From Patescibacteria group bacterium (GTDB lineage Bacteria > Patescibacteriota > Patescibacteriia > Magasanikbacterales > GWA2-37-8): a stretch of 64,000 bases of DNA. Each line of letters starts with the position of its first letter. Position 1 is the first letter of the stretch. Location of the stretch: assembly GCA_004321885.1 (NCBI GenBank), contig SCQK01000007.1, positions 96,001-160,000 of the forward strand, written 5' to 3'. Made by a program: the position numbers and the translations under genes. This document shows positions 5,637-48,436 of this stretch, in pieces. The notes under the pieces are model-generated. The model was not told the origin of the DNA, did no database searches, and saw nothing but the letters and a program-made list of their open reading frames with translations.

Positions 5637-6662
5637 TTATACCACAAAATTGTCTCGCAGTAATGTGGATAACTGTTTCCACTGCTCTACGGATAATTCT
5701 TGAGCGCGAATGTTTGGGCCAATACCCATTTCAGTAAAAATTTTTTCCAATTTTTCTTTAGCGCCCTCATTGTCATTCCCCCGACTAAGTACGGGGGAAT
5801 CCAGCAACGGCTGTAAATTCTTTATCAATAATTTGCGTTTTTGCGCGAATCCGGCTTTGACCACTTTGAAGAACCACTGTTCATTGTCATCATCGCTGTC
5901 ATCGCTGGCTCCATAGTCCCCCAAAGGGGGCTGTGGAGCCAGAGTGCCGGCCGACATCACGGCTCCATAATCCCGGTCGCCTGCGGCGACCGTGGAACTA
6001 TGGAGCCAGCGATGTTGCTCCATTCCTCGCAATGACAATTTTATCACCGCGCTGTCCACCTTGGGTTCGGGCCAAAAAAATGTTTTCGGCACTTTCATTA
6101 TTATTTCCGGCTCGGCGTAATATTGAACGGAAACAGCAAGCAAAGACATATCCCCCGGCCCAGCGCAAATTCTTTCGGCCACTTCTTTTTGCACCATGAG
6201 TACCATCACGGACGGACTGTCCGCTTCTCCCGCAACAGCGGGATCCCGCTCGCCGCGGGACAAAAATTTACGCAACACGTTGGAAGTGATTTGATACGGC
6301 AGATTGGCCACAACTTTGTATTCTTTATTCCCCATTCCTAATTCTCTATTTTTCAACACATTTCCCCACGCAATTTCCACGTTCTTATGTTTCTTCACTT
6401 GCTCTTCCCAATACGGCTGGAGTTTTTTTTCAATTTCATAGGCAATGACTTTGCCGGCGCGCTCGGCCAGCGCAAAGGTGAGCGCGCCAAAACCCGGGCC
6501 GATTTCAACCACCGTGTCTTTTTTGGAAATTTCCGCCGCCGCGAGCATCTTTTCTATTGGCTCTTCGCGCAACAAAAAATTCTGCCCGTATCGTTTGCTG
6601 GGAGTGAGGCGATACTTGGAGCAGAGATATTTTAAGTGTGAGGTAGCAAATAAGATGGACAT
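5637..6662 (-). CDS. rsmA: 16S rRNA (adenine1518/1519-N6)-dimethyltransferase RsmA/KsgA, carrying three in-frame repeat insertions
   Basis: GQNFL start motif, SAM-binding VVEIGPGFGALT, NLPYQITS and VLMVQKEVAERI motifs. The C-terminal half contains repeat-derived segments (family E about 5925-6035, family A 5771-5804). Confidence 0.85.
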   Translation of the reverse strand: MSILFATSHLKYLCSKYRLTPSKRYGQNFLLREEPIEKMLAAAEISKKDTVVEIGPGFGALTFALAERAGKVIAYEIEKKLQPYWEEQVKKHKNVEIAWGNVLKNRELGMGNKEYKVVANLPYQITSNVLRKFLSRGERDPAVAGEADSPSVMVLMVQKEVAERICAGPGDMSLLAVSVQYYAEPEIIMKVPKTFFWPEPKVDSAVIKLSLRGMEQHRWLHSSTVAAGDRDYGAVMSAGTLAPQPPLGDYGASDDSDDDNEQWFFKVVKAGFAQKRKLLIKNLQPLLDSPVLSRGNDNEGAKEKLEKIFTEMGIGPNIRAQELSVEQWKQLSTLLRDNFVV

Positions 6663-8507: not shown

Positions 8508-8528
8508 AGAATAACTGACGGAATTTTT

Positions 8529-9014
8529 TTAAAAAATTTTATCCAGCCCGACGGTCAAAACCGCGATTACCAGATTGGCGATAACCGTACCGACAAAAAG
8601 ATAAGGCCATGATTTTTTGAAAGGCAAACCGAGAATAAAAGCGATGAGCGAAGCCGTATAGCCGCCGTTTACCGGCAGAGGAATGGCCATAAAAATCAAA
8701 AGGCCTATAAGTTCGTATTTTTGATAACGGGCAAATTTTTTTTGCGCATGGGCCAGCGCCTTCAGCCACGCTTTGCCAAAAAATCCGGAATTCTGCGAAA
8801 CCCATTTGTGAAATTTGTCGGCCACCAGCAGAATCGCCGTAATCGGAATCATATTTCCCGCGATAATCAAAATCATCGCTTCCCAAACGGGCAAGCGATA
8901 CGCGACTATCGCCACCGGCAAAGCCACTCTTTCCACGAGCGGCAAAGCGGACATGATGATAGTAGCCAGAACCGGCGGAAACGAGGAAAAAAAATGGATG
9001 AATGCTTGAGTCAT
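8529..9014 (-). CDS. Small integral membrane protein (COG2426 / small multidrug export-like)
   Basis: Four predicted TM helices across 161 aa; N-terminal LPLVERVALPVAIVA motif resembles the small multidrug export family. Product assignment is tentative. Confidence 0.45.
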   Translation of the reverse strand: MTQAFIHFFSSFPPVLATIIMSALPLVERVALPVAIVAYRLPVWEAMILIIAGNMIPITAILLVADKFHKWVSQNSGFFGKAWLKALAHAQKKFARYQKYELIGLLIFMAIPLPVNGGYTASLIAFILGLPFKKSWPYLFVGTVIANLVIAVLTVGLDKIF

Positions 9015-9395: not shown

Positions 9396-11066
<1,671 letters not shown>

Positions 11067-11432: not shown

Positions 11433-11459
11433 TTATCACTCTAAATACCAGAGTGATAA
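11433..11459 (-). promoter_or_regulatory. CIRCE-like inverted repeat (HrcA operator) upstream of groES-groEL
   Basis: ttatcactc-N9-gagtgataa, compared with the CIRCE consensus TTAGCACTC-N9-GAGTGCTAA; positioned between a family A repeat and the groES start. Confidence 0.65.
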
Positions 11460-11494: not shown

Positions 11495-12889
11495 TCAAGA
11501 CCTTCTGCGCCCAACCACCAAACCCCACACTCCCCACCAAAAAACCTGTCCCACGTACAATGACCACAAAAAGTGTTCAAAGAGCGCGGCCGCGAGCAGA
11601 GTAGCCAACACCGGAATGAAGACGCGATTATTCGCTGAAACAAACTGGCAGAGTTTTCTGTGGATTAAATAAAAAATAATAAAACCGAACAAGCCCAGCT
11701 CGGCAAACACCAAAACATAAGTATTATGGACCGGCAAAGAGTACAGGCTATGCGTGGCCGCCGCCAACCTGATTGGGTAAAAACCGGGGCCAACACCAAA
11801 CAAAGGATATTTTTTAATAAAAGCAAAGGCGTATTCATATTGATTTTGACGCTCGGAAATGGAGCGGGTTTCCAGCCGGGTATTGGCGCGAATGCGGGTG
11901 GCGAAGACAGGCCATAAGATGATGACAAAAGCAAAAATAACAAGCAAGCTATATGTAATTTGCTTAAAAATAAGCGAGGGGATTCTTCCGCGCGCCCCTT
12001 CAGGGCCTGGTCGAAATAACACCACTAACCAAAAAACCATTCCAACTGCCGCGGCAATCCACGCCCCGCGCGAAAACGATAAAATCAATCCGCTCAAAAC
12101 AAACGTCTGCCCAATGGAAAAAAGGATTTTGCGTCCGCCTTTTTCTATACGCGAATACAATACCAACCCCAGCACAAAAATCACCGCCAAATAAATTCCA
12201 AAAGGATTTGGCCCGCCCAAACTGCCGTACGGACGCAGAAGACGCGCGCCGGCAAACTCAATCACTCCGGCCCCGACGTCATAAGACGCGTGCCCTGCAA
12301 TTCCCAGCCACTTGCTCGCGAACACCCCTTGAACACAAAATTGATACAAGCCCAAAATCGCTTGCCCCACCCCGCCGAGCCATAACGCGCCCAGTGCCCC
12401 CCCCTTTATACTTCGTATTTGCTTGTTCGCTCGGAAGAAAAACTTCATTTTTCTTCTCTCGCTCACTTCGCAAATAAGGGGGGGCGACGGGGGGGTAAAG
12501 GCGACGACCACCCCGAGCGCCATGGCCTCAAGTAATTTGAAAACAAAATAAAAAGAAATACCCTTGTCAAAACTCTTCAAAACGCCGATTCCCAAAATAG
12601 CCAAAAAAATAATTAAATATAAAAGCGCTCGTTTTCTATTTTTCGCCCGCGCAAAAAAATCCCGTCGCGCTTCCTTGCTCCAAAATTTCTCCAGTAAAAA
12701 CAAAAGCAAAATAATCCAGAACAAAATTTCCGTGGCGTATAAGCTCACGGTTCCATATTCCCAAAATTGCCCGTTCAGTTCCCCGTATTTCCAGATATAA
12801 CGGGTTTGCCAAGGCAGGAGAAAGAAGAAAAGGAGTAAGAGGTAATACCGAATTCGTGAAATTAACATAAACAGAATGGCAAAATCCAA
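11495..12889 (-). CDS. Polytopic membrane protein, O-antigen ligase/polymerase (Wzy_C)-like
   Basis: 464 aa with about 10-12 TM helices and a large loop; the general architecture resembles O-antigen ligase family proteins. Tentative. Confidence 0.5.
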   Translation of the reverse strand: MDFAILFMLISRIRYYLLLLFFFLLPWQTRYIWKYGELNGQFWEYGTVSLYATEILFWIILLLFLLEKFWSKEARRDFFARAKNRKRALLYLIIFLAILGIGVLKSFDKGISFYFVFKLLEAMALGVVVAFTPPSPPLICEVSERRKMKFFFRANKQIRSIKGGALGALWLGGVGQAILGLYQFCVQGVFASKWLGIAGHASYDVGAGVIEFAGARLLRPYGSLGGPNPFGIYLAVIFVLGLVLYSRIEKGGRKILFSIGQTFVLSGLILSFSRGAWIAAAVGMVFWLVVLFRPGPEGARGRIPSLIFKQITYSLLVIFAFVIILWPVFATRIRANTRLETRSISERQNQYEYAFAFIKKYPLFGVGPGFYPIRLAAATHSLYSLPVHNTYVLVFAELGLFGFIIFYLIHRKLCQFVSANNRVFIPVLATLLAAALFEHFLWSLYVGQVFWWGVWGLVVGRRRS

Positions 12890-12934: not shown

Positions 12935-13972
12935 TCATTGGTAATTGGTAATTTTTAATTTCCACTCTTCTCTATATTTCGCCCTGGTGTCATTCTCGTG
13001 AAATTTCAAAATGCCGTCGGAAATCACCACGCTCTTGTCGCCCGCGGCGGCTTTTTCTTTCAAAGAGAACATAAGCCGAGCCATCTGAAGCGCTTTTACC
13101 TGCCCTTCAATCAAATCGCCATACGTTCCGGCCCACATTTTTTCCCAAATTGTTTTCCAAATTTTGCCAAGCCGTGAATCGCGCAAACGCAAGCGCGAAA
13201 CAACTTCAAATCGCGCCAAGGCATTGGGCAAGTATTTTTTTGTCCACGAATTCGCGGCCAAAAAATTGGCGTAATAATTGCCGGGGTCGTATATCGGAAT
13301 CATCTGGTGTATCCAATAAGCAAAATGTATGTCATCATCGGCCACGCGTAAATTTTCCAAATTTAAGTGTTCGCTGTCCGCGTAAAACGACAAACAGACG
13401 CGATTTTTGTGCTTTTGGCCATACACGCGCAAACCCCACAATCGCAAAATTAAATTGGTAAAAAACCGCGCCAACCAGACGCGGCGCGGGGCGGCGACGA
13501 TGAAAAAATCAATGTCGCTTTCTTCCTTCGCCTGCTCCATACCCACGCTGTTGCAGACAAAAACCGCTTTCACAAACGGCGCCGAACGGATTTTTTTGGC
13601 GGCCCGGCGCGCGATTTTTAATTTCTTCTCCGTTTCCGCCAGCCGCGCCCGCCGCGCCTCAACTGTCCCCGCTCGCCCGGGAAGAAAATAATAACTGAAT
13701 TTTGTTTCAACCTTTCTGTCATCCTGAACTTGCTTCAGGATCTCTAAAAATTGCGCAAACCCCATCGCCGGCGCCTGCCCCCACACCAAAGAATTTGGTG
13801 TGGGGGGCGTCCACAAAAAAGAATACACCTCTTCGCGCGTCAGAGGATAATCGGCCGAATCAAAATAAGCCAGAGTTTTCTGAATACTTTCAAGAAGAGC
13901 TTTTTCCATAGGGCTCTTTGTCTGAAATTTCCGCCGCACAAATTGCCAAGCCCTTGTTGCCAATTTCCACAA
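12935..13972 (-). CDS. Hypothetical protein (possible nucleotidyltransferase-fold; carries a family F repeat in frame)
   Basis: 345-aa ORF; GMEQAKEESDIDFFIV resembles a nucleotidyltransferase hG[GS]...D.D motif. 13718-13748 is a family F repeat translated as FAQFLEILKQVQDD. The start may instead be the Met at 13909, since the upstream gene ends at 13890. Confidence 0.45.
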   Translation of the reverse strand: MWKLATRAWQFVRRKFQTKSPMEKALLESIQKTLAYFDSADYPLTREEVYSFLWTPPTPNSLVWGQAPAMGFAQFLEILKQVQDDRKVETKFSYYFLPGRAGTVEARRARLAETEKKLKIARRAAKKIRSAPFVKAVFVCNSVGMEQAKEESDIDFFIVAAPRRVWLARFFTNLILRLWGLRVYGQKHKNRVCLSFYADSEHLNLENLRVADDDIHFAYWIHQMIPIYDPGNYYANFLAANSWTKKYLPNALARFEVVSRLRLRDSRLGKIWKTIWEKMWAGTYGDLIEGQVKALQMARLMFSLKEKAAAGDKSVVISDGILKFHENDTRAKYREEWKLKITNYQ

Positions 13973-15318: not shown

Positions 15319-16560
15319 TTATTCTTTAGTTTCTTCTACTGGCTCTTCTTTGCTTTCCCCAACCTTTTCCTCAATCGGTTCAGCCGCCGCTTCTTCGCTG
15401 GACATTTCCTGAGTGCCGCCCTTTTCTTTCACATTGATGCCCCAGCCCGTAAGCTGGGCCGCCAGGCGCACGTTTTGCCCGCCGCGGCCAATGGCCAAAG
15501 AAAACTGGTCCGGCGCGACATACGCCGAAGCCGTTTTGCTGGCTTCGTCCAATTCCACTTCCGCCACTTTGGCTGGAGACAGCGCGTTGGCAATATAGTT
15601 GACCGGACTTTCGCCATAACGGATGATATCTATTTTTTCTCCGCCCAGCTCTTCTATTATAGTATTGATGCGTCCACCGCGCTGGCCAATGCACGAACCG
15701 ATGGGGTCTATCTGCTCGTCGTTCGCGTCCACAGCCACCTTGGAACGGTAGCCGGGCTCGCGCGCGATGCCTTTTATTTCAATCAGTCCTTCTTTAAGCT
15801 CGGGAATTTCCTGCTTGAAAATTTCCCGCACCAAACCCGCGTCGGCGCGCGATAAAATTATCTCGGGTCCGCGCGGCCCCATCTGCACCGACTGCACCAA
15901 AAATTTCAGCTTGCTCCCGGAACGATAAAAATCGCGGCTGTTTTGCTGTTCCGCGGGCATAATGCCAGTAACTTTGCCCAAATCAACCAAAGTTTTTCTG
16001 CCTTCCACGCGCTGAATCGTGCCGACAATTACCTGACCTTCCTGACCCTTGAAGTCGTCAAACACCATACTGCGCTCGGCTTCGCGCACCTTTTGGATTA
16101 TCACCTGCTTGGCGGTCTGCGCGGCCATGCGTCCGAAATCGCCCCCAGCCTCCAGCTCAATTTCCAGCACCTCGCCGGCCCGGGCGCCTTTTTTGATTTT
16201 TTTCGCCTCCGAGAGCATCATTTCCAGCTTGGGATTAAAGCGCGGCAAATCAGCCACTTCTTCCTCGGTGAGCTCGCGGCCTTCCTCTTTGGCCTTTTCA
16301 CGCCGCTTGGTCAATTCTTCCTGGGCCGCGACCAGCGCCTCCTCGGCAGTATCTTCCACCACGATTTTCACGTCCCACGCTTTCATATCGCCGGTCTCGG
16401 GGTCAAATTTCACCTTGATGTTCTGTTGTTTGTTGCCAAAATCCTTGCGATAAGCCGCGGCCAGCGCCACTTCTATGGCCTCAAGCACCGCCTCGTAGGG
16501 CAGATTTTTTTCCTCGCACAAAAATTGTATGGCCTTGCTGATTTCCGACATAGTTGTCAT
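15319..16560 (-). CDS. nusA: Transcription termination/antitermination factor NusA
   Basis: N-terminal NusA domain, S1 domain and two KH domains (IGSCIGQRGGRI and IGRGGQNVRLAAQLTG). The start codon ATG lies inside the family A repeat at 16554-16589. Confidence 0.9.
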   Translation of the reverse strand: MTTMSEISKAIQFLCEEKNLPYEAVLEAIEVALAAAYRKDFGNKQQNIKVKFDPETGDMKAWDVKIVVEDTAEEALVAAQEELTKRREKAKEEGRELTEEEVADLPRFNPKLEMMLSEAKKIKKGARAGEVLEIELEAGGDFGRMAAQTAKQVIIQKVREAERSMVFDDFKGQEGQVIVGTIQRVEGRKTLVDLGKVTGIMPAEQQNSRDFYRSGSKLKFLVQSVQMGPRGPEIILSRADAGLVREIFKQEIPELKEGLIEIKGIAREPGYRSKVAVDANDEQIDPIGSCIGQRGGRINTIIEELGGEKIDIIRYGESPVNYIANALSPAKVAEVELDEASKTASAYVAPDQFSLAIGRGGQNVRLAAQLTGWGINVKEKGGTQEMSSEEAAAEPIEEKVGESKEEPVEETKE

Positions 16561-16667
16561 TCCCCCGACTTAGTCGGGGGAATCCAGTTATATTAAATTA
16601 AAGAGCCCTTCTTCCGAAGCGCTCTCTTAACAATCAAACCTTGGAATTAAGCATACACCTGTCTGAT

Positions 16668-18928: not shown

Positions 18929-20463
18929 AGATGTTTACCCCTCCCTAACCCTCCCCTTATAAAGGGGAGGGCAATAATAATATACAACAATATCGTCATC
19001 CACCAGCTGATTCGTATTTCCAGCGCGGCCCAGCCCTGTTTTCCAAACCATTCCACTAACATTATAACATACCCAAGTCCGACGCCAACAATCCAGGCCA
19101 CTATCTGTCCCAAAGGAAAAAATATGAAACCGAGCATGACCGCGGCGAATCCAAAAAGCATCAGCCACGGGATAATCCACAGCACCAGCAAATTCACGAG
19201 CGGCGCAACGATAGAGAGGCGGCCGAATTGAAACAGCATCAAAGGCAAAGTGGCGATGATGGCGGAAAGGGTTTGCACCAATGTTTGAAAGAAAAAATTA
19301 ATACTGTCATTGCGAGGAGCCGGAAGCGACGAAGCAATCCCAAGCGATAAATATACGAGTCCCAAAGTCGCTAAAAAAGACAGTTGAAACCCCGCGTCCC
19401 ACACCAGCACGTACGGATTAAAAAGCAACATCAGCGCCGCGGTCAGCGCCAGCACATTGCCCACGCGCGACAAGCGACCCATTTGTTGCGCCAGCAAAAC
19501 AATCACGCCCATTATTCCGGCGCGCACCACCGAAGCCGAGGCGCCGGTAAAGAGCACGAATAAAATTATGCCAACGACCACGGCCCAAAACGCGCGAGGG
19601 CGCGACAGCCCGGCCAGAATAAAAAAACTCATCAGCGCCAAGGCGATGATACTAATGTTGTATCCGGATATGGCGATAATATGAGTGATGCCCGAACGAT
19701 TAAAATCCTCCAGCAGCTCCGTCGGCAGGCCGCTACGCGCGCCGTAGAGCAGTCCGGCCATCAAACTGCTCTTCGGCTCTGGCCAAAGTTTGTCCACCTG
19801 ATTCGCGACAGCCGATTTAAGGCGTAACATGTCATTGCGAGCGACCGTAGGGAGCGCGGCAATCCCATTCTTTGCAAGGGATTGCTTCGTCGTTTCACTC
19901 CTCGCAATGACAGGATTCCCGCACACCGACCAAATCCCATAGCGCGCCAAATACTGGTCATAGCGAAATCCGTCCGGGCTCGCTTTTGGCTCTTGCAATA
20001 CACAAGACAAATTCAACTCCTCTCCATACTCATAGCGCGGATACAGTGGCAGCCAAAAAATAATTTTACCGGAAATATTTTTTGGACAAACAAACGACTG
20101 CCCCGCGCAACTTTTTACTTTCGCCACGTATTTCACGTTGCTTATCCCCGCTTCCGGCTCTTCGCTTACAGCCGCCGTCACTTCCATTTTCTCGCCGTTG
20201 TAATATTTGATACTGCTCGGCGTGATTTTCGGCACGCTGATTAAAAAACGCAAGCCGCCCAAAATAAAAAACAACGCGCAAAGCAGGGCGAAGCGCCAAA
20301 CTTTTTTCTGCCACAGCATTACGGCGAAAAAAAGCGCGGCAAACGCCGCGATAAACAAAGGAAACTGCCAATCACTATTTTCCTGAAGCGAAAACAAACT
20401 CACGCCGGCTATAAAACAAAAGCAAAACGCGAGAAACGTTTTGCTTTTAGAGTGCATTGTCAT
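18925..20463 (-). CDS. comEC: ComEC/Rec2 competence protein, N-terminal (DUF4131) plus polytopic competence-channel domain
   Basis: Competence-domain signature GLPTELLEDFNRSGITHIIAISGYNIS and multiple TM helices. I trimmed the start to MTMHSKSK (20463/20457) because the longer ORF (20697) overlaps leuS. Contains in-frame family B insertions (19300-19345 and 19833-19915). Confidence 0.75.
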   Translation of the reverse strand: MTMHSKSKTFLAFCFCFIAGVSLFSLQENSDWQFPLFIAAFAALFFAVMLWQKKVWRFALLCALFFILGGLRFLISVPKITPSSIKYYNGEKMEVTAAVSEEPEAGISNVKYVAKVKSCAGQSFVCPKNISGKIIFWLPLYPRYEYGEELNLSCVLQEPKASPDGFRYDQYLARYGIWSVCGNPVIARSETTKQSLAKNGIAALPTVARNDMLRLKSAVANQVDKLWPEPKSSLMAGLLYGARSGLPTELLEDFNRSGITHIIAISGYNISIIALALMSFFILAGLSRPRAFWAVVVGIILFVLFTGASASVVRAGIMGVIVLLAQQMGRLSRVGNVLALTAALMLLFNPYVLVWDAGFQLSFLATLGLVYLSLGIASSLPAPRNDSINFFFQTLVQTLSAIIATLPLMLFQFGRLSIVAPLVNLLVLWIIPWLMLFGFAAVMLGFIFFPLGQIVAWIVGVGLGYVIMLVEWFGKQGWAALEIRISWWMTILLYIIIALPFIRGGLGRGKHL

Positions 20464-20474
20464 TTTAAACACGC

Positions 20475-23012
20475 TCACACAACTATACTCACCAACTTTC
20501 CTTTCACGTAAATCACTTTCTTGGGTTGTTTGCCTTCCAGCCATCTCTGAATTTTTTCGCTGGCGAGCGCGCGGCTCTTCGCCTCTTCTTCGGAGATTCC
20601 CGCCACCACTTCCAAAGTGTCGCGCAACTTGCCATTCACCTGCACGGCCAGAGTGATTTCTTTTTCTTTGGCCAGCTCGGGGTCGTACTTCGGCCACGGT
20701 TCAAATGTGATGGATTTTTTATGTCCCAATAGCGACCACAACTCTTCGCACATGTGCGGAGCGAAGGGCGAAAGAATTTTTACGAATAATTCAAAATTCG
20801 CGATGGAAATTTTTGCCTGCTTTGAAAATTCATTACTCAATTCCATCATTTTCGCTATGGCCGTATTAAATCTCATCGCTTCAATATCTTCGGTGACTTT
20901 TTTGATTGTTTGGTGAAGTAGCTGCGTCATGCTGTCATTGCGAGGAGCCGAAGGCGACGTGGCAATCCCTTTCTTTGTTTGGGATTGCTTCGCTTCGCTC
21001 GCAATGACATTGAGCCCCCACACCCTCTCCAAAAACCTACGCACCCCTATCAATCCATTCGTATCCCACTCCACGGCCTGGTCAAACGGCCCCATGAACA
21101 TTATATACGTGCGCAAAGAATCCGCGCCGAATTTTTCCACCATTTCGTCCGGGTTTACCACGTTGCCTTTTGATTTACTCATTTTTTCTCCGCCTTTGGC
21201 TAAAATCATGCCGTGGCTGGTGCGTTTTTTGTACGGCTCACGCGTGGGCACAGCGCCGATGTCAAACAAAAACTGATTCCAAAAACGGGAATACAACAAA
21301 TGTAGAACCGTGTGCTCCATGCCGCCATTATACCAATCCACGCCGCCTTCGCCCGGCTTCGCGGGCTTCGGCGGGCAAAGCCAATATTTTAGCTTTTCCA
21401 TTGAGGCCAATTTCTTATCGTTTTTCGGGTCGCAGTAGCGCAAAAAATACCAACTGCTTCCGGCCCAATTCGGCATGGTGTCTGTTTCGCGCCGAGCCGG
21501 GCCGCCACATTTCGGGCATTTTGTTTTCACCCATTTTTCCATCGCGGCCAAGGGCGATTCGCCTGTGTCGGTCGGCTCATATTTTTTCACTTTCGGCAAT
21601 TCCAAAGGCAAATCTTCTTCCGCCAGCGGAATCCATCCTGGATTCAATCGCTCACCATCGTTTGGAAATTGGAAATTGGAAATTGGAAATTCCGCTTGTT
21701 TTTCGCACGCGGGACAAAAAACAAGCGGGATGGGTTCGCCCCAATAGCGCTGTCGCGAAAACACCCAATCGCGGAGTTTGTATTGCACTTTTTTCTCGCC
21801 AATCTTTTTTTCTTCCAGCCACTTCATTATTTTTTCCATCGGCTCGGGCACGATTTCCTTTATCGGCAAATTAAATTTCTTGGCAAACTCACTGTCGCGC
21901 TCGTCGTGCGCGGGCACGGCCATAATGGCGCCGGTGCCATAACCGGCCAAAACATAATCCGCTACCCACACCGGAATTTCCTTACCCGTGGCCGGGTTAA
22001 TCGCTTTGATACCCTTCAATTCCACGCCTGTTTTCTCTTTTTGAAGCTCTGTCCTCTCTAAATCCGATTTTTTCTTAGCTGATTCAACATATTTTTTTAC
22101 TTCGTCTATATTTGGAAATTGGAAATTGGAAATTGGAAATTTGAGGAGCGAAGCGACGAGTTCATGTTCGGGCGCGACAACCATGTACGTGGCGCCGAAG
22201 AGAGTGTCGGGGCGAGTGGTGAAGACCTCAAGCACACTGTCATTGCGAGGAGCCGAAGGCGACGTGGCAATCCCTTTCTTTGTTTGGGATTGCTTCACTT
22301 CGTTCGCAATGACAAATTTAATCATCGCGCCTTCGCTTCTGCCAATCCAATTTTCCTGCTGGACTTTTGCGCGTTCAATATAATCCACCTCTTTCAAGCC
22401 CTCCAGTAATTTATCCGCGTACTTGGTAATCGCCAGCATCCATTGCTCCTTATTGCGCCGCTCCACCGGCGTACCACAGCGCTCGCACTTGCCGTCCACC
22501 ACTTCCTCGTTGGCTAAGCCGATTTTACACGACGGGCACCAGTTTATGGGCATGGCTTTTTTGTAAGCCAAACCGTGCTTGAAAAGCTGTAAAAAAATCC
22601 ACTGGGTCCATTTGTAATATTTCGGGTCCGTGGTATCCACCTGCCGCGACCAATCAAAACTTAAACCGAGCGATTTTAGCTGGCGCGTGAAATTGGAGAT
22701 GTTTTTTTTCGTCACCTCGGCCGGGGGTTTGCCGGTCTTGATAGCAAAATTTTCCGTCGGCAGGCCGAAAGCGTCAAATCCAATAGGATACAAAACATTG
22801 TAGCCCTCCATGCGGCGCTTGCGCGAAATAATATCCATGGCCGTGTAGGCGCGCGGATGTCCCACGTGCAAACCCTCGCCGCTCGGATACGGAAACTCAA
22901 TCAAAGAATAAAACTTCTTTTTTTTCTTATCTTCTTTAACCTCAAAAGTCCCGTTCTCTTCCCAAAACTTCTGCCACTTTTTTTCAATTTTTTTCGGGTC
23001 GTATTTTGGCAT
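20475..23012 (-). CDS. leuS: Leucyl-tRNA synthetase, with four in-frame repeat insertions
   Basis: HVGH (HIGH-type) motif near the N-terminus, KMSKS, and editing domain. Two family B insertions (both translated ...[20 protein letters not shown]...) and two GGAAATT microsatellite insertions (FPISNFQFP). Confidence 0.9.
20934..21008. repeat. Family B element inserted in frame in leuS
   Basis: gtcattgcgaggagccgaaggcgacgtggcaatccctttctttgtttgggattgcttcgcttcgctcgcaatgac; an identical copy at 22239-22313 lies also inside leuS. Confidence 0.85.
22114..22141. repeat. Family C GGAAATT heptamer microsatellite (4 copies) inside leuS
   Basis: ggaaatt x4; other arrays at 21663-21683, 36368-36398, 58432-58460, 60418-60452, 60885-60915 and intergenic 17300-17345. 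Confidence 0.85.
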
Positions 23013-23895: not shown

Positions 23896-23924
23896 TTGAC
23901 CTAACTGCCCAGTTCGTTTATACT
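23896..23924 (+). promoter_or_regulatory. Strong sigma70-like promoter (TTGACC-17-TATACT) of an orphan ~250-nt transcription unit
   Basis: ttgacc at 23896-23901, a 17-nt spacer, tatact at 23919-23924. Confidence 0.55.
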
Positions 23925-24000
23925 ATTGCTAAGCGTGGTGTGCTGTCTGTCGCTTATCAGCGGCTGAAAGCCCCACACAACACTCCAACGAGGAGGAACA

Positions 24001-24057
24001 ATGAAAGTCGGCAACAGAGCAGGCCCGGCCCAGAGCCGAGCCAACAACACGCGCTGA
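24001..24057 (+). CDS. Putative 18-aa small ORF (MKVGNRAGPAQSRANNTR) with a strong Shine-Dalgarno
   Basis: gaggagg sits 5 nt upstream of the ATG; it lies between the promoter at 23896 and the terminator at 24152. Coding status is uncertain and the transcript may instead be an sRNA. Confidence 0.3.
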   Translation: MKVGNRAGPAQSRANNTR

Positions 24058-24151
24058 TCGCAGAAGCCAACCGCCTCTTCGGGGCAGGAGGTGAAAATGC
24101 ACTGGCCGTGACAAACACGGACGGCGTAGGCACTGTGACGGAGCAGGACCA

Positions 24152-24182
24152 GGGGGCGGTCTCGACGACGCCCCTTTTTTTA
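24152..24182 (+). terminator. Rho-independent terminator
   Basis: Stem ggggcg/cgcccc with a 10-nt loop (gtctcgacga), followed by seven T. Confidence 0.6.
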
Positions 24183-24190
24183 ATCTCAGC

Positions 24191-24316
24191 TAAATTAAAA
24201 CGGAGGGTATATATAATTTTTGTAGCGGCCATCGCACCCCCGCGGGGCAGCGGTCGCCGCAGGCGACCCTGTTTGGCCGCAAAAAAATTATATATACCCT
24301 CCGTTGTTTTAATTTA
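24191..24316. repeat. Long perfect AT-rich palindrome (about 33-bp arms) enclosing a conserved 57-nt GC-rich structured core, copy 1 (downstream of trxA)
   Basis: Arms taaattaaaacggagggtatatataatttttg / caaaaaaattatatataccctccgttgttttaattta; core gcggccatcgcacccccgcggggcagcggtcgccgcaggcgaccctgtttggccgc. The right arm overlaps the trxA stop codon. Confidence 0.8.
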
Positions 24317-24634
24317 CGCGTACTTCTCCAGCATCTCTTTCAACTTCTCTTTCTGCACCCCGCCCGTCAGCTGGTCCACTATCTGGCCGTCCTTGAAAAC
24401 CATAAACGAAGGGATACTCAACACACTATACTGCGCGGCCGTGTCGCCGTTCTCGTCCACATTCATCTTGCCGATTTTAATGTTCTTGCCCTCAAATTCC
24501 TTGGCCAATTCTTCCACTATCGGCCCCATCATCTGGCACGGCCCGCACCACGGCGCCCAAAAATCCACAAACACCGGCTGTTTGGATTGCAAAACCTCCT
24601 CGTTAAAATTTTTGTCGGTAAACACGTTGTCCAT
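24314..24634 (-). CDS. trxA: Thioredoxin
   Basis: 106 aa with the WCGPC active site (FWAPWCGPCQMMGP). Confidence 0.9.
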   Translation of the reverse strand: MDNVFTDKNFNEEVLQSKQPVFVDFWAPWCGPCQMMGPIVEELAKEFEGKNIKIGKMNVDENGDTAAQYSVLSIPSFMVFKDGQIVDQLTGGVQKEKLKEMLEKYA

Positions 24635-24698
24635 ATTTATTTTTTTCTGGATTCCCCCGTACTTAGTCGGGGGAATGACAGCTTGTGTTTAATTATTA

Positions 24699-24803
24699 GC
24701 AAAGTTTTGTGATTTTTTTCGCAGCGGCCATCGCACCCCCAAGGGGCAGTGGTCGCCGCAGGCGACCCTGTTTGGCCGCAAAAAAAAATTCACAAAACTT
24801 TGC
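24699..24803. repeat. Copy 2 of the conserved 57-nt core in a different perfect palindrome (about 22-bp arms), upstream of trxA
   Basis: Arms gcaaagttttgtgatttttttc / gaaaaaaaaattcacaaaactttgc; core gcagcggccatcgcacccccaaggggcagtggtcgccgcaggcgaccctgtttggccgc, in the same orientation as copy 1. Confidence 0.8.
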
Positions 24804-24805
24804 CT

Positions 24806-26824
24806 TTAACTTAACACCAACTTTTTCTCCTTTTCCTCTTCCTTGTAACACTCCAGCACATCATCTATCTCCAATTTTAATTTACCCTCAAACTGCGCCC
24901 CGCACTCGCTACCCTCGGGCACTTCGTTCAAAATCTGCTTGGCCACCTGCAACTGCGACAACTTACCCAAGCCGATAATCTCTTCCCCGCGCTTTACTCG
25001 CGCTTTACAGCCCTTCTGCAGTTTGCCCTGTTCCACGCGGCCGCCGACTATCATATTGCCCTTGCCGGTGCGGAAAATCGCCACCACCTTGAACACCCCG
25101 AGTTCAGTAGTAATTTTTTCCGGACTCAACAACTTGCCCATTTCTTCTTTGACGAAATCCAGCAGGTCGTAAATTATTTTGTACTCATTATACACTAATT
25201 TTTTATCGCGCGCCATTTCTTGCGCCACCGGGTTGATGGTAACATTAAAAGCAAAAAGCATGGCGCCGGCGGCTTCGGCCTTGGCCACGTCATCTACCGT
25301 CACATTGCCCAGGCCCTTGCCCACCACGCGCACGCCCACCTCGTCATTTTTAATTTTTCCCAGCGAACCGATAATCGCTTCCAGCGAGCCGAGCGTATCG
25401 CCCTTCACCACCACGTTCAAAACCTTCTTTTGCTCGTCGCTTTCAGCCGCGCCCAGGGCAAAAGTTTCTTTTTCCGCGCCCATCTGCTTATTTTTTTTCT
25501 CTTTTATGTCAATGGCCTTGGCCCCGGCGGCCGCGGCCACGTCCAAAATATCCCCCACGGCCGGCGCCACCTTAAATCCCAGAATGCGCGCCGGACAGCT
25601 GGGCGGGGCCGTCAGCAAATTTTCTCCTTTGTGATTTTTCATGGCCCGCACCTTGCCGTAAATCTCGCCGTTTATCACCAGCGGGTCGTTCACGCGCAAA
25701 GTGCCGGTCTGCACCAAAATCGTGGCCACCGGGCCTTCGCCCTTGTCCACGTGCGCCTCAATGACCGTGCCCGCGGCCGAGCGGTCCGGATTGGCTTTAA
25801 TGCTGTCGGCATGCACGTCGGCCACTAAAAGCAACACATCAAGTAGCTTATCTATGTGCAAATTCTGTTTGGCGGAAATTTCCACCATGGGCGTGTCCCC
25901 GCCCCACTCCTCGCCTATCACTCCGTTTTGCGACAAATCAACGCGCACCTTTTGCGGGTCAGCTCCCTCTTTGTCAATTTTATTGAGCGCCACCACGGTC
26001 GGAATTTTGGCGGCCTTGATAATGTTTATCGCTTCCAAGGTTTGGGGCTTGACGCTGTCGTCGGCCGCCACCACCAGAATGGCGATGTCAGCCACCTTGG
26101 TGCCGCGGCTGCGCATCACCGTAAAGGCCTCGTGCCCGGGAGTGTCTATAAATGTCAGGGGGGATTTTTCTTTGGTTTTGGGATTGGTCCAAATCACCTG
26201 ATAAGCGCCGATGTGCTGGGTAATGCCACCAGCCTCGGATTCCATGACATTGGTGCGTCGAATAGCGTCTAACAATTTTGTTTTACCGTGGTCAACGTGC
26301 CCCATCACCACGATAACGGGCGGGCGGCGCGTGGTAGCGTCCGCGGCCAAAATTGATTCCAAATTATTTTCGTGCGCCGAGACTGCTTCGGTTTTTTGCT
26401 CGGGTTCGCGCACGGTAAAACCGAATTCCTGCGCCATCAGCACGGCCGTGTCATGGTCCAGGCGCTCGTTTTGCGCAGCCAAAATTCCGTTTTTCATGAG
26501 TTCAACGATAAGGCCGGTAACCGGCATCTGCAAAATATCGGCGAATTGGCGCACGGTCAGCTGGTTTGGTATGGCCACGCTGGCGCCGCTCGTCTGGCGC
26601 GCCTCTTTTTCCAGCTCTTTTTGTTTTTCTTTTTCCTTGCGCTCGCGCTCTTCCAGCACGAACTTTATCCGTTTCCAGGCGCGCTGAATCTGCTGGGCCA
26701 CGCGGTCATCCACTTTCACGGCCCGAGCGCCGATATCAAAACCAAACTCTGGCAAAATTTGCAAAAGTTTTTGGGGGTGGACTCGGAGTTGTCTGGCCAG
26801 TTCGCTTACGTTCATAAAGCTCAA
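24806..26824 (-). CDS. infB: Translation initiation factor IF-2
   Basis: GTPase domain (GHVDHGKTKLLD, DTPGHEAF, NKIDK), then IF-2 domains II-IV; 672 aa. Confidence 0.9.
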   Translation of the reverse strand: MSFMNVSELARQLRVHPQKLLQILPEFGFDIGARAVKVDDRVAQQIQRAWKRIKFVLEERERKEKEKQKELEKEARQTSGASVAIPNQLTVRQFADILQMPVTGLIVELMKNGILAAQNERLDHDTAVLMAQEFGFTVREPEQKTEAVSAHENNLESILAADATTRRPPVIVVMGHVDHGKTKLLDAIRRTNVMESEAGGITQHIGAYQVIWTNPKTKEKSPLTFIDTPGHEAFTVMRSRGTKVADIAILVVAADDSVKPQTLEAINIIKAAKIPTVVALNKIDKEGADPQKVRVDLSQNGVIGEEWGGDTPMVEISAKQNLHIDKLLDVLLLVADVHADSIKANPDRSAAGTVIEAHVDKGEGPVATILVQTGTLRVNDPLVINGEIYGKVRAMKNHKGENLLTAPPSCPARILGFKVAPAVGDILDVAAAAGAKAIDIKEKKNKQMGAEKETFALGAAESDEQKKVLNVVVKGDTLGSLEAIIGSLGKIKNDEVGVRVVGKGLGNVTVDDVAKAEAAGAMLFAFNVTINPVAQEMARDKKLVYNEYKIIYDLLDFVKEEMGKLLSPEKITTELGVFKVVAIFRTGKGNMIVGGRVEQGKLQKGCKARVKRGEEIIGLGKLSQLQVAKQILNEVPEGSECGAQFEGKLKLEIDDVLECYKEEEKEKKLVLS

Positions 26825-26826
26825 CT

Positions 26827-27240
26827 ACCCTCTCCTGTTAGGGGAGGGATAAAGGGATGGGGTATCCACTCAATATCCCTAAAATCTTACTCTCTTACAC
26901 TGAATTAGTCAAATACGGGAATATCGCTGGCTCCATAGTGCCCGACTTAGTCGGGGCTGTGGAGCCGTAATGCACTCTGGCTCCACGCACAGCATGGAGC
27001 CAGCGACATTTGACACGCGCCCGATTTTGTGATAAAGTGATTTCACAATTAAAATAATAATTCTGGATTCCCCCGACTTAGTCGGGGGAATGACAGATGA
27101 GATTTTTGAGGGAATTTTTTAAGAGGAAACTCGTATGGCTCGTGCGGCTGAAACTGCCAAAAATACGCTAACGAAAACACTTTCAAGCGCTATCCGTGTG
27201 TGGGTTCCCCCGTACTTAGTCGGGGGAATGACAAACGAAT
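26827..27240. repeat. Intergenic repeat hotspot with a family D hairpin, a family E element and two family A copies
   Basis: 26827-26862 (D), 26925-27010 (E: ggctccatagtgcccgacttagtcggggctgtggagcc...), 27063-27098 (A), 27203-27238 (A); a 500-bp spacer between infB and rny. Confidence 0.8.
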
Positions 27241-31540: not shown

Positions 31541-34264
31541 ATGCCAAAACTAAAACCCCAGCTACTCCTCATTGCTTTAGCAACTATTTTAATATCGTCT
31601 GGTTTTGTTTTTGCGGTAAAAAAAATTCTAACTGTATCTGCAGTCAATAAGACGGCTTCTCTTGCCGAATTTAGCCCTCTTATTCCAACTTCTTCAGCGC
31701 AAGCGGATATCCCCACGGAACAAATACAAAAACTCCAGATTAAGAATTTTAAGAATGGAGCGAAATCTATCGAGCAAGATATTAAAGTGTTAAAAAAACA
31801 ACTATCTGCGTTGGCGCGGCGGAAAGTGGCCATACCATCGTTTTCTCCCGAAGGTATTTCAAATAACTTAACTAAACTGAAAACGCTAATTAAACAAATT
31901 AAAGCCATGCAAAGTTGGGGGGAATTAAATGTGTTAAAGCGGGAGATGAGTGAGCCGATGCGCCAACTATCTATAGATAGCCATCAAGTAGAGGTTTTAG
32001 CGCGCTGGCCGGATGCCTTAAAGCTATTAAATCAGGAACTAAACCGGCTAGTTCGCGAGGTTAAGCGCGCCAAACCGATTATTGAACGGCTATTTAAGAA
32101 GGAAGCTGATTTAACTGATGCTTATCGTGAATTTGACGCGGATGTCAACAAGATAAAACTAACCTTGGCAGAAGCAAATACCAAGATATCGGCCGGCGAT
32201 TTAGAAGCCGCTTTTAGCATTATTGAAATTGATTTTTTTGATCAAATAGATAACGTGGAACAAAATTACCGCTCCATAATTATCATAAGCAATTTAGGCC
32301 GCTTTGCTTCCTATCTTAAACAAAACATTACCACAAGCCAAAACGAAATTAAGTCGTTGAAGAAAAAAGGCATTGATGCGAGCGAACTTCAGGATTTGTT
32401 AAGTCATATCAAGACCAACGGCAACGATGTTTTGGCATTGATAAAAGCCAAACCCATTGACGAGGATGCGATTCTTTCCGGAATTCAAGAGATGGACGAA
32501 TTAAAACAGGATTTTTCCGACAAAGTAAGCGAAGTTACCGATGGAGAAGAGATGTCGTGGGGTAAAGATGGCAGTTTTTTTTCTAAAACAGAACTATCTT
32601 CAAAGGCTGTAGAAGCAATAAGTTGGCTACAGAAACAAGTTAACTGGACCGCCTCTGTTCCTGTAACGAGCATGGATGTTCCATCAAGTGAAACAACATT
32701 GACCGCGCCTCAGTCTGGTAATCAATCAACCTCAACACCTTCAAGCGCCACACCGGCAACACCAGCCACTCCAGCGGTCTCTTCTTCTGTCAGCGCCGCC
32801 CCGGCTTCACCGGCGGTTCCAGCCACGCCCGCACAACCAGCATTAACCGCAGACACGACGGTTCCTTCCACGCCCACAAATCTAACCGCTAATTCTTCCA
32901 GTTCTGTTCAAATTAATCTGGCTTGGACCGCTTCAACAGATAATGTTGGTGTGACTGGTTATCGCATCTATCGCGGAGGCGTCCAAATGGGCACTTCAAA
33001 TACCACTAATTATTCCGATACAGGACTTTCTTCGTTAACTACTTATTCTTATACTGTGGCGGCTTATGATGCGGCTGGTAATGTTTCTCCTCAATCAACT
33101 TCGGCAAGCGCCACAACACAGGCATTAGACACAACTCCGCCTGTCATCTCCTCGGTTTCAGTATCTCTTACCTCCGATTCTGCCACCATTACTTGGACAA
33201 CCAATGAATCTTCTGATTCACAAGCGAGTTATGGGTTGACATCCTCATATGGCAATACAACTCCATTGAACTCTTCTCCGGTTGTTTGGCATTCTGTTTC
33301 GCTTTCAAATTTAACTGGTGGCACAACTTTTCATTACAAAGTAATCTCCACAGATGGTTCAGGGAATAAAACCGAAAGCGGAGATGCAACTTTTACAACA
33401 ACATCTTCTGTCTTGCCAGCACCGAGTTTTCTTACGAAATGGGGTTCTCGGGGTTCTGATAATGGACAGTTTAATTCTCCTTTCGGTATCGCCGTAGATG
33501 CCAGTGGCAATGTTTATGTGGTGGACAGCCACAATCACCGTATTCAGAAATTCACCAGCAATGGCGTGTTTACCACCAAGTGGGGCTCTTCGGGTTCTGG
33601 CGACGGGCAGTTTTCTTACCCTTTCAGCATCGCCGTAAATGCCAGTGGTAATATTTATGTGACGGATGACAATAAGCATATTCAAAAATTTACCAACGAC
33701 GGCACCTTTATCCTCAAATGGGGCTCTTATGGTTCTGGTAATGAGCAGTTTTCTAGTCCTGAGGCTATCGCCGTAGATGCCGGTGGCAATGTTTATGTGG
33801 TGGACAGACCTAATAACCGCGTCCAAAAATTTACTGGGGATGGCACATTTATTACTAAGTGGGGCTCTTCGGGTTCTGGCGACGGGCAGTTTCAAGATCC
33901 TCGTGGTATCGCCATAGATGGTAGTGGCAATGTTTATGTGGTGGATTCCTCCAATAGCCGTGTCCAAAAATTTACTAGCGATGGCGCTTTTATCACTAAG
34001 TGGGGCTCTTCGGGTTCTGGCGATGGACAGTTTTTTACTCCTTTCAATATCGCCGTAGATGCCAGTGGCAATGTTTATGTGGCGGACGGCTACAATAATC
34101 GTGTTCAAAAATTTACCAGCAATGGCGTGTTTATCACCAAGTGGGGCTCTTCGGGTTCTGGCGATGGACAGTTTTCCCTTCCTCGTGGTATCGCCATAGA
34201 TGGTAGTGGCAATGCCTACGTGACGGAAGCCGACAACAGCCGCGTCCAAAAATTCGCTCCGTAA
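31541..34264 (+). CDS. Large secreted protein: coiled-coil region, Ser/Thr/Pro linker, two fibronectin type III domains and a six-bladed NHL-repeat beta-propeller
   Basis: Signal/TM N-terminus; FN3-like segments (LTANSSSSVQINLAWTAS...YSYTVAAYD); six NHL repeats of the form GxGxGQFxxPxGIAVDxSGNVYVxDxxNxRVQKF. Confidence 0.75.
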   Translation: MPKLKPQLLLIALATILISSGFVFAVKKILTVSAVNKTASLAEFSPLIPTSSAQADIPTEQIQKLQIKNFKNGAKSIEQDIKVLKKQLSALARRKVAIPSFSPEGISNNLTKLKTLIKQIKAMQSWGELNVLKREMSEPMRQLSIDSHQVEVLARWPDALKLLNQELNRLVREVKRAKPIIERLFKKEADLTDAYREFDADVNKIKLTLAEANTKISAGDLEAAFSIIEIDFFDQIDNVEQNYRSIIIISNLGRFASYLKQNITTSQNEIKSLKKKGIDASELQDLLSHIKTNGNDVLALIKAKPIDEDAILSGIQEMDELKQDFSDKVSEVTDGEEMSWGKDGSFFSKTELSSKAVEAISWLQKQVNWTASVPVTSMDVPSSETTLTAPQSGNQSTSTPSSATPATPATPAVSSSVSAAPASPAVPATPAQPALTADTTVPSTPTNLTANSSSSVQINLAWTASTDNVGVTGYRIYRGGVQMGTSNTTNYSDTGLSSLTTYSYTVAAYDAAGNVSPQSTSASATTQALDTTPPVISSVSVSLTSDSATITWTTNESSDSQASYGLTSSYGNTTPLNSSPVVWHSVSLSNLTGGTTFHYKVISTDGSGNKTESGDATFTTTSSVLPAPSFLTKWGSRGSDNGQFNSPFGIAVDASGNVYVVDSHNHRIQKFTSNGVFTTKWGSSGSGDGQFSYPFSIAVNASGNIYVTDDNKHIQKFTNDGTFILKWGSYGSGNEQFSSPEAIAVDAGGNVYVVDRPNNRVQKFTGDGTFITKWGSSGSGDGQFQDPRGIAIDGSGNVYVVDSSNSRVQKFTSDGAFITKWGSSGSGDGQFFTPFNIAVDASGNVYVADGYNNRVQKFTSNGVFITKWGSSGSGDGQFSLPRGIAIDGSGNAYVTEADNSRVQKFAP

Positions 34265-35255: not shown

Positions 35256-35441
35256 GTCAGGGTAGCTCAGTTGGTAAGAGCACAGGATTCACCCTCCCAC
35301 CAAAATGGCTGGGTAGCTCAGTTGGTAAGAGCACGGGATTCATAACCCCGAGGTCGGCAGTTCGATTCTGCCCCCAGTCACGATTGTTTGGTGGGAGGGT
35401 GAATAACCCTGAGGTCGAGGGTTCGACTCCCTCCCCTGACA
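35256..35441 (+). tRNA. tRNA(CAU)-like gene interrupted in the anticodon loop by a 112-bp insertion (candidate intron or pseudogene)
   Basis: Perfect acceptor gtcaggg/ccctgac, D arm gctc-agttggtaa-gagc, T arm gaggg-ttcgact-ccctc. The anticodon stem cagga/ccctg is split by caccctcccacc...ggtgggagggtg (a 14-bp helix) that encloses the tRNA at 35307-35380. Removing 35292-35403 yields the loop ttCATaa. Confidence 0.5.
35307..35380 (+). tRNA. tRNA-Met/Ile2 (anticodon CAU), elongator type; CCA not encoded; nested inside the interrupted tRNA
   Basis: Acceptor ggctggg/cccagtc (G-U at 2:71), D arm gctc-agttggtaa-gagc, anticodon stem cggga/ccccg with loop ttCATaa, variable loop aggtc, T arm ggcag-ttcgatt-ctgcc. 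G1-C72 argues against an initiator. Confidence 0.8.
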
Positions 35442-35443
35442 CT

Positions 35444-48393: not shown

Positions 48394-48436
48394 TTTCCCT
48401 CCCCTTTATAAGGGGAGGGATAGGGAGGGGTAAATT

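Follow-up and report, generated by a model that had tools for sequence, protein, structure and literature searches.

Repetitive extragenic palindromic sequences (REPs) and bacterial interspersed mosaic elements (BIMEs) are small GC-rich extragenic palindromes with loops of 2-3 nt that lie downstream of genes, between co-directional or convergent open reading frames (ORFs), and are often composite (PMC3733652). REPs that lie inside larger palindromes have been documented in A. variabilis (GTAG-15), T. roseum (GTAG-23) and H. neapolitanus (CGTC-1) (Di Nocera et al. 2013, PMC3733652), and the insertion sequences (IS) IS1397/ISKpn1, IS621 and ISPpu9 insert into REPs (PMC1525189). Here we describe, in a 64-kb stretch of a Candidatus Magasanikbacteria-like genome of the candidate phyla radiation (CPR), referred to below as the window, a GC-rich core of 56 nt that is present in two direct copies, one on each side of the thioredoxin gene trxA downstream of infB, with each copy located at the tip of a different AT-rich palindrome (Table 1). 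We regard it as moderately probable that this core, or the 71-nt unit that contains it, is a low-copy, lineage-specific selfish palindrome of the REP, BIME or MITE (miniature inverted-repeat transposable element) kind, located in the apical loops of gene-end hairpins that already existed.

The repeated core and its two hairpins

An earlier note on this DNA had reported two direct copies of a conserved core, each at the tip of a different AT-rich palindrome, and both were recovered on the forward strand with a sequence pattern, compared with none in 100 shuffles. The core measures 56 nt and not the 57 nt given in that note, whose consensus carried one G too many in each hairpin. In the predicted fold, a 7-bp outer stem (GCGGCCA/TGGCCGC) surrounds two hairpins with loops of 3 nt. 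The first is CCCC-CGC-GGGG in copy 1 and CCCC-CAA-GGGG in copy 2, and the second is GGTCGCC-GCA-GGCGACC, lengthened by CAG/CTG across a 1-nt bulge; its loop, previously read as gcag, is the 3-nt GCA. The two cores differ at three positions: the exchange of GC for AA does fall within a hairpin loop (that of hairpin 1), where the earlier note had placed all of the differences, but the third, a C/T substitution, is located at the 1-nt bulge. In the predicted fold, none of the three is paired. With 14 of the 56 core positions unpaired, the chance that three independent substitutions would all be unpaired is ~0.013, or ~0.06 when the neighbouring exchanges GC>AA count as a single event. The structural conservation that had been deduced from these differences is compatible with their distribution, which is nevertheless weak evidence for selection on structure. 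Because the two copies are nearly identical, no covariation between them is possible, and the number of compensatory changes is zero.

The similarity runs past the core to form a direct repeat of 71 nt, TTTTYGYA-core-AAAAAAA, that is 93% identical between the copies and whose T-run and A-run pair with each other, lengthening the helix. The 5′ flank reads tGTAG in copy 1 and cGCAG in copy 2, the final G being the first base of the outer stem. A 76-nt unit was used to build a covariance model, R1, with which further copies were sought.

Beyond the 71-nt unit, the flanks are unrelated from copy to copy and yet self-complementary within each copy, in agreement with the earlier description of a conserved core between unrelated arms. 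The arms themselves are less regular than had been thought. At copy 1, where 33 perfect base pairs had been counted, there are perfect arms of 23 bp (24199-24221 / 24283-24305) and a perfect outer pair of 11 nt (24191-24201 / 24306-24316) that is displaced by a 3-nt bulge, which makes ~31 pairs overall. At copy 2, described as ~22 bp and perfect, the perfect arms span 14 bp (24699-24712 / 24790-24803) and are followed by a 1-nt bulge and a T-run/A-run helix of 6-8 bp. When folded as RNA on the mRNA strand, copy 1 reaches -70.9 kcal/mol (z = -10.9) and copy 2 -62.1 kcal/mol (z = -7.9) relative to shuffles.

The gene context is as previously described, with copy 1 overlapping the trxA stop and copy 2 located between the infB stop and the trxA start. 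The 3 nt at the outer edge of the copy-1 palindrome are the stop codon of trxA, and that of infB is located 2 nt beyond the copy-2 arm. On the mRNA strand, the sequence 3′ of the copy-1 hairpin is U-rich (UUUUAAUUU), and that 3′ of the copy-2 hairpin (UAAUAAUUAAAC) has no U-tract. The outer copy-1 palindrome, TAAATTAAAAC..CGGAGGG / CCCTCCG..TTTTAATTT, starts at the trxA stop codon and consists of an A-tract, which includes AAATTAAAAC ahead of CGGAGGG, a GC stem and a T-tract; its form is the same as that of the trxA terminators of relatives. Perfect AT-rich hairpins without a core are found at other gene ends in the window, at 20418-20448 (a 12-bp stem, after leuS) and at 11433-11459. A promoter within the arms was considered as well and rejected, TATAAT being present in copy 1 only.

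Nested repeats in the window and in relatives

The window is dense with families of small palindromic repeats. The hairpin family ATTCCCCCG-n7-CGGGGGAAT has about ten copies, one of them in the same infB-trxA spacer as core copy 2, and further families comprise CCCTCCCC-n7-GGGGAGGG, TGTCATTGCGAG...CTCGCAATGACA, CCCCCACACCAAA-n3-TTTGGTGTGGGGG and others. The infB loci of the closest relatives (L001-L010) are almost entirely devoid of ATTCCCCCG-n7-CGGGGGAAT, CCCTCCCC-n7-GGGGAGGG and CCCCCACACCAAA-n3-TTTGGTGTGGGGG.

The best non-self match of model R1 is the right half of I5, a nested palindromic repeat that is built on the scaffold ATCGCT-[GGCTCCA..TGGAGCC]x2-AGCGAT and reads, on the minus strand, ATCGCT-GGCTCCA-[GGTCGCC GCA GGCGACC]-TGGAGCC-...-GGCTCCA-[CCCCC TTT GGGGG]-TGGAGCC-AGCGAT. 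The first of its two tips (5975-5991) is exactly the GGTCGCC-GCA-GGCGACC hairpin of the core, and the second, CCCCC-TTT-GGGGG, is a look-alike of the smaller core hairpin. In I15, a paralogue located upstream of infB, the scaffold is kept, with a GCCCGACTTAGTCGGGGC hairpin at one tip and the other tip empty. Since the tips of I5 and I15 differ, small GC hairpins at stem tips must be exchangeable or insertable.

I5 lies in frame inside the rRNA adenine dimethylase gene ksgA/rsmA (5637-6662, minus strand), whose product of 341 amino acids is ~70 longer than usual and whose Pfam RrnaAD match ends ahead of I5. In leuS (20475-23012, minus strand), at least four in-frame segments that correspond to gaps relative to the L001 orthologue are derived from repeats, two from TGTCATTGCGAG...GCAATGACA repeats (translated VIA[SN]E[AV]...) and two from GGAAATTGGAAATTGG-type repeats. 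Given the in-frame location of I5 in ksgA and of these segments in leuS, the repeats behave as invaders at the DNA level. The palindromic elements of Rickettsia likewise insert in frame in genes.

Several side observations concern the same genes and the repeat content of the window. The ksgA gene also holds, in frame, a ATTCCCCCG...CGGGGGAAT hairpin at 5773-5808 that is translated as SPVLSRGND. In several Magasanikbacteria relatives, the LeuS proteins span 1028-1217 amino acids, and the two tRNA-synt_1 halves are separated by Pfam domains of the HAD_2, Ser_hydrolase or NUDIX type, which indicates large domain insertions in leucyl-tRNA synthetase. In L003, L004, L006 and L010, the window LeuS is matched by tblastn in separate pieces with ~500 nt between them. 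A forward-strand ORF of 907 amino acids (31541-34264) contains tandem repeats of 141/282 nt that are 67-78% identical (33391-34233) and probably encodes a repetitive surface protein.

A nested arrangement of another kind is found in a tRNA-Met(CAT) gene at 35256-35442 (forward strand), upstream of tsaD, which is split in its anticodon by an insert of 112 nt (35291-35402). In this insert, a perfect inverted repeat of 18 bp (ATTCACCCTCCCACCAAA / TTTGGTGGGAGGGTGAAT), whose outer 5 nt overlap the anticodon loop, carries at its tip a second, complete tRNA-Met(CAT) (35307-35381). Removal of the insert in silico leaves a canonical 75-nt tRNA that is recognised by ARAGORN. The outer, split tRNA has its acceptor stem and its place upstream of tsaD in common with an uninterrupted tRNA in L010, and a similar uninterrupted tRNA is present in L009; insertion into a hairpin loop is therefore proven at the tRNA. 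The length of the insert falls short of that of a group I intron. The architecture of the insert, in which a perfect stem within the loop of a hairpin carries a structured unit, is the same as that of the trxA elements. At its right end, the insert repeats 4-5 nt of the left target flank (ATTCA) in inverted form (TGAAT).

The infB-trxA region was compared with that of 14 Magasanikbacteria relatives, of which seven are GTDB species representatives (L001, L003-L007, L010) and the other seven are additional contigs (L086, L088, L090-L094); their InfB proteins are 65-75% identical to that of the window. In all 14, trxA is directly downstream of infB, and the trxA genes of relatives end in an A-tract / GC-stem / T-tract hairpin immediately behind the stop codon. 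A perfect AT-rich hairpin without a core lies in the infB-trxA spacer of L092 and likewise in those of L003 and L004, and in L010 a perfect AT-rich palindrome of 26 bp with a GC-rich tip of 21 nt follows leuS (12623-12695). Multi-hairpin elements of the form TGTCATT...AATGACA flank trxA on both sides in L086 and L094 and occupy the infB-trxA spacer in L091. In L090, a terminator stem of ~25 bp after trxA has a tip made of two GC-rich hairpins (6375-6480), and in L006 the trxA terminator is followed by a small, perfect three-way-junction element (8487-8538), with a 12-bp stem and two small hairpins, that folds better on the mRNA strand owing to a G-U pair. L001, L010 and L093 have almost no spacer at the positions that flank trxA. 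None of these elements of relatives has detectable homology to the core, and model R1 matches neither that of L090 nor that of L006. Homology to the L090 and L006 tips in particular was considered on account of a common CGCCGCAG...CCCTG string, yet with no model match the resemblance is architectural only. What recurs around trxA in relatives is a place and an architecture, and not a sequence.

A separate feature abuts core copy 1, a GC-rich stretch of ~250 nt (23896-24181, forward strand) that is convergent with trxA. It has a sigma-70-like promoter upstream (TTGACC-17-TATACT, 23896-23924) and ends in a terminator (GGGGCG..CGCCCC followed by T7, 24153-24181), and it contains a strong Shine-Dalgarno sequence with an ORF of 18 codons (MKVGNRAGPAQSRANNTR). 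No Rfam match at E<=10 and no similarity in the loci of relatives were found for this stretch, which may be a lineage-specific small RNA or small-peptide gene.

Table 1. Positions of the elements and of other features named in the text (window coordinates unless a relative is named)
Feature	Position	Strand	Basis
Core copy 1 (56 nt)	24225..24280	+	pattern, fold, model R1 at 105 bits
Core copy 2 (56 nt)	24724..24779	+	pattern, fold, model R1; 3 unpaired differences vs copy 1
71-nt repeat unit of copy 1 (T-run, then GTA, core and A-run)	24217..24287	+	direct-repeat comparison, fold
71-nt repeat unit of copy 2 (93% identity with that of copy 1)	24716..24786	+	direct-repeat comparison
Complete copy-1 hairpin	24191..24316	.	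inverted-repeat search, fold
Complete copy-2 hairpin, infB-trxA spacer	24699..24803	.	inverted-repeat search, fold
trxA, thioredoxin of 106 aa	24314..24634	-	ORF; 60-75% identical to trxA after infB in relatives
infB (IF-2)	24806..26824	-	ORF; protein 100% identical to NCBI TAN33570.1
ATTCCCCCG-n7-CGGGGGAAT copy in infB-trxA spacer with core copy 2	24650..24685	.	repeat search
Nested palindromic repeat I5, ~120 nt	5897..6017	-	model R1, 22.8 bits, E = 3e-4
I15, paralogue of I5, upstream of infB	26917..27013	+	repeat comparison
Small hairpin families, intergenic examples	11036-11060, 16559-16583, 27067-27091; 18949-18971, 48396-48420, 51377-51399; 13778-13806, 42436-42456		
Long LeuS genes in relatives	L086 6688-9774; L088 7837-10016+; L092 5562-8019+; L093 6908-8016+		Pfam

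Origin and possible function of the elements

If the core is indeed a selfish palindrome, it would have been assembled from small hairpin modules that are also present in the other nested repeats, and its host hairpins would be the trxA terminator for copy 1 and a hairpin of the infB-trxA spacer for copy 2. The arms would be unrelated between copies because they are local target sequence and not part of the element, and the stacking of the element's own T-run and A-run onto them would account for their unusual apparent length. In the infB-trxA mRNA (minus strand), the outcome would be a Y-tipped hairpin of very high stability. Given the U-rich tract after copy 1, the hairpin there has probably kept the capacity to terminate transcription or to protect the 3′ end, and copy 2, if it has any role, would probably serve as an intercistronic stabiliser or processing hairpin. 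Tolerance of the composite is probably due to the continued ability of the enlarged hairpin to end or protect the mRNA. We infer the insertion of the core into loops, its mode of movement and any RNA role from this arrangement.

A number of results weigh against this explanation. No third copy of the core was found in the window, either with the pattern or with model R1 run with filters off, and none in ~190 kb of relatives' loci (model R1 being run on L001-L010, L086, L088 and L090). In JGI metagenome contigs the pattern gave five chance matches, with unrelated interiors, in coding DNA of 65-72% GC; viral contigs (JGI) gave no match, and BLAST against plasmids and phages returned either chance matches of 27-35 nt in GC-rich bacteria or none. 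The absence of further copies, which the earlier note had named as a point against its proposal, thus holds for the window, the relatives' loci and the JGI metagenome and viral, plasmid and phage sets, and not for the rest of the source genome or the GTDB genomes. With just two known copies, separated by 499 bp, mobility is not demonstrated, and both could also stem from a duplication at this locus or from gene conversion. In InfB, the nearest genome reaches only 75% identity (the value for the next-best homologue after TAN33570.1, which belongs to a Patescibacteria metagenome-assembled genome), so that no empty orthologous site is available, and we infer insertion into a pre-existing loop by analogy. 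As the flanks TTTTYGYA / AAAAAAA are conserved between the copies, the borders of the element are uncertain. Copy 1 without its core would be an AT-rich stem of 23 bp, and the longest empty hairpin in the window has 12 bp. A consensus terminator scan gave no site at either hairpin, although the scan was limited to stems of at most 20 pairs and loops of 3-8 nt and cannot represent hairpins of this kind. No REP-associated tyrosine transposase (RAYT) or IS200-605 transposase was found among 20 window ORFs scanned with Pfam.

A broader proposal would extend insertion into loops beyond this element: a structure-targeted process may place self-folding DNA modules (GC hairpins, the 56-nt three-way-junction core, a complete tRNA gene) into the single-stranded apical loops of hairpins, the targets being terminators, the tips of other repeats and the tRNA anticodon loop. 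Such a process, perhaps driven by a single-stranded DNA (HUH-type) enzyme or by replication template switching, would yield nested palindromes with unique outer arms. It seems to us rather improbable, and what credence we lend it comes mainly from the architecture of the tRNA insert. We know of no description of this mode of mobility in bacteria.

Alternatively, the core could function as a structured RNA (a small stable RNA, or an mRNA element acting in cis) at the tip of long double-stranded processing stems. Ribosomal RNAs and some tRNAs sit on long double-stranded processing stems of this sort. RNase III would then cut the unrelated arms, releasing or exposing the three-way junction, or the pair of elements would set trxA expression apart from that of infB. 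The confinement of all three substitutions to unpaired positions, the location of both copies in the same orientation within one transcription unit, the very stable stems (z = -8 to -11) and the presence in L090 and L006 of GC-rich branched tips or Y-shaped elements behind trxA are all compatible with this idea. We nonetheless consider it unlikely. The earlier note had likewise suggested a structured non-coding RNA or attenuator pair, for which the analysis gave no positive evidence. Relatives carry unrelated repeats or almost no spacer (L001, L010, L093) at these positions, which argues against a conserved requirement; model R1 has no homologue in relatives, L090 and L006 included, and there is no covariation; and the identical hairpin module occurs on a repeat within the ksgA coding sequence. 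Nor does any known RNA family account for the core, as the earlier note had anticipated in finding nothing it could name. At the Rfam gathering level the window contains two tRNAs only and no family at the core, and even at E<=10 matches over the elements stayed at chance level (isrD, 19.5 bits against a threshold of 37; mir-148, 21.5 bits against 53).

Some specific candidates were rejected individually. Hammerhead, twister and other small ribozymes lack both their conserved cores and an Rfam match, a tRNA-like structure or RNase P substrate is a misfit for the 3-nt loops and the 5-nt linkers beside the outer stem, and a CRISPR or TIGR array would not consist of just two units with a gene in between.

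It is also conceivable, though we would assign it a low probability, that the arms arose after the core had been inserted into an ordinary spacer, when its strong self-pairing provoked intramolecular template switching or fold-back priming during replication and one flank was copied inverted over the other, giving each copy a unique perfect palindrome. Such copying would fit arms that are perfect over 23 and 14 bp and yet unrelated between the copies, the excess of the 23-bp AT-rich arm over every empty hairpin of the window, and the inverted flank copy ATTCA/TGAAT at the tRNA insertion. It is harder to reconcile with the outer copy-1 arms, which resemble a normal terminator beginning exactly at the trxA stop codon, with the long perfect AT-rich palindrome at a gene end in L010, a relative without the core, and with I5 and I15, whose arms are conserved and not unique. 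Template switching of this kind is known to us only for correcting quasi-palindromes.

The proposal of the earlier note that trxA might be an excisable or mobile cassette bounded by recombination sites, integron attC or those of another site-specific system, starts from the fact that direct repeats of 71 nt, 93% identical, flank a single small gene. We judge it very unlikely, as it is largely refuted by the adjacency of infB and trxA in 14 of the 14 relatives: since trxA adjoins infB in every one of them, it is ancestral at this position, and with the synteny fixed, the elements are additions to the spacers and not cassette borders. Moreover, the GTTRRRY/RYYYAAC ends of attC type are absent from both elements on either strand, no integrase or recombinase was found among the neighbouring ORFs scanned with Pfam, and other repeat families flank trxA in L086 and L094. 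A chance resemblance or an assembly artefact, for which one could cite the metagenome-assembled source and the single record, is hardly credible in view of two 56-nt matches against none in the shuffles, the position of the site between conserved genes that are intact and away from the ends of a 214-kb contig, and the fact that an assembly chimera would not give two different perfect palindromes centred on one core.

If the core is a selfish palindrome in gene-end hairpins, it would be one more lineage-specific palindromic repeat in an unusually repeat-loaded CPR genome, and would indicate that repeats can stack onto terminators and leave a conserved unit such as infB-trxA undisrupted. Should many copies exist, each in a different hairpin loop, then together with the I5/I15 tips and the tRNA they would make hairpin loops a general insertion target in a reduced genome. 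This, if true, would offer a handle on the spread of palindromic repeats, which to our knowledge is still unresolved for most REP-like families.

Comparison with known systems

Among the systems considered, the REPs and BIMEs share with the core their small size, GC-richness, short loops, composite nature and extragenic position downstream of genes. The 5′ flank GTAG/GCAG loosely fits the GYAG tag of the GTAG-REPs, except that the G of the tag is paired here. REPs are, however, single stem-loops of 20-40 nt that occur in tens to hundreds of copies per genome, whereas the core is a three-way junction of 56 nt, of which only the inner hairpins (11 and 17 nt) are REP-sized, and is present in two copies in 64 kb, both intergenic. 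The palindromes that host REPs have a consensus of their own, whereas the two that host the core are unrelated, and REP systems involve a RAYT gene, which is absent from the 20 window ORFs scanned. Membership of the core in the REP family is not established in view of its size and its branched fold.

The MITE-like multi-hairpin repeats of CPR and other uncultured bacteria (TGTCATTGCGAG...CTCGCAATGACA) resemble the trxA elements in their branched GC-rich interiors and in their presence in the trxA spacers of L086, L091 and L094. A MITE-like repeat has conserved terminal inverted repeats and a variable interior, and in this respect the trxA element is the reverse, its interior being conserved and its arms not; the conserved part that could serve as terminal repeats is only the 7-bp GCGGCCA/TGGCCGC stem and the T-run/A-run, and there is no direct target-site duplication at either copy, where the flanks are inverted repeats. 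Rickettsia palindromic elements provide a parallel for the repeats that this genome carries in frame in leuS and ksgA.

With integron attC sites the elements have in common an imperfect palindromic structure, direct orientation and a position beside a single gene that looks promoterless. An attC site is conserved at its ends and variable at its centre, unlike the conserved core and variable arms described here; with no R′/R″ consensus, no integrase seen nearby and trxA in conserved synteny, attC was rejected both for its pattern of conservation and for the synteny. The inverted terminal repeat of the parvovirus adeno-associated virus is a T-shaped terminal hairpin, in which two small GC-rich hairpins, each with a loop of 3 nt, top a long stem at a three-way junction. 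The likeness is one of shape only: the elements are internal to the chromosome, without a Rep protein or a terminal position, and no relationship is implied.

Intrinsic terminators and REP-type stabilisers of 3′ ends are comparable in their position right after a stop codon and, at copy 1, in the succession of A-tract, stem and T-tract with a U-rich tail. The stems are 3-4 times longer than those of intrinsic terminators and have a branched tip, and copy 2 has no U-tract. The insertion sequences that target palindromes, finally, carry transposase genes and recognise repeated REP targets, unlike the non-coding insert of 56-76 nt, whose targets are unique hairpins. The DNA that they insert comes to be flanked by the two halves of a palindrome, and these insertion sequences thus provide a precedent for hairpins as targets.

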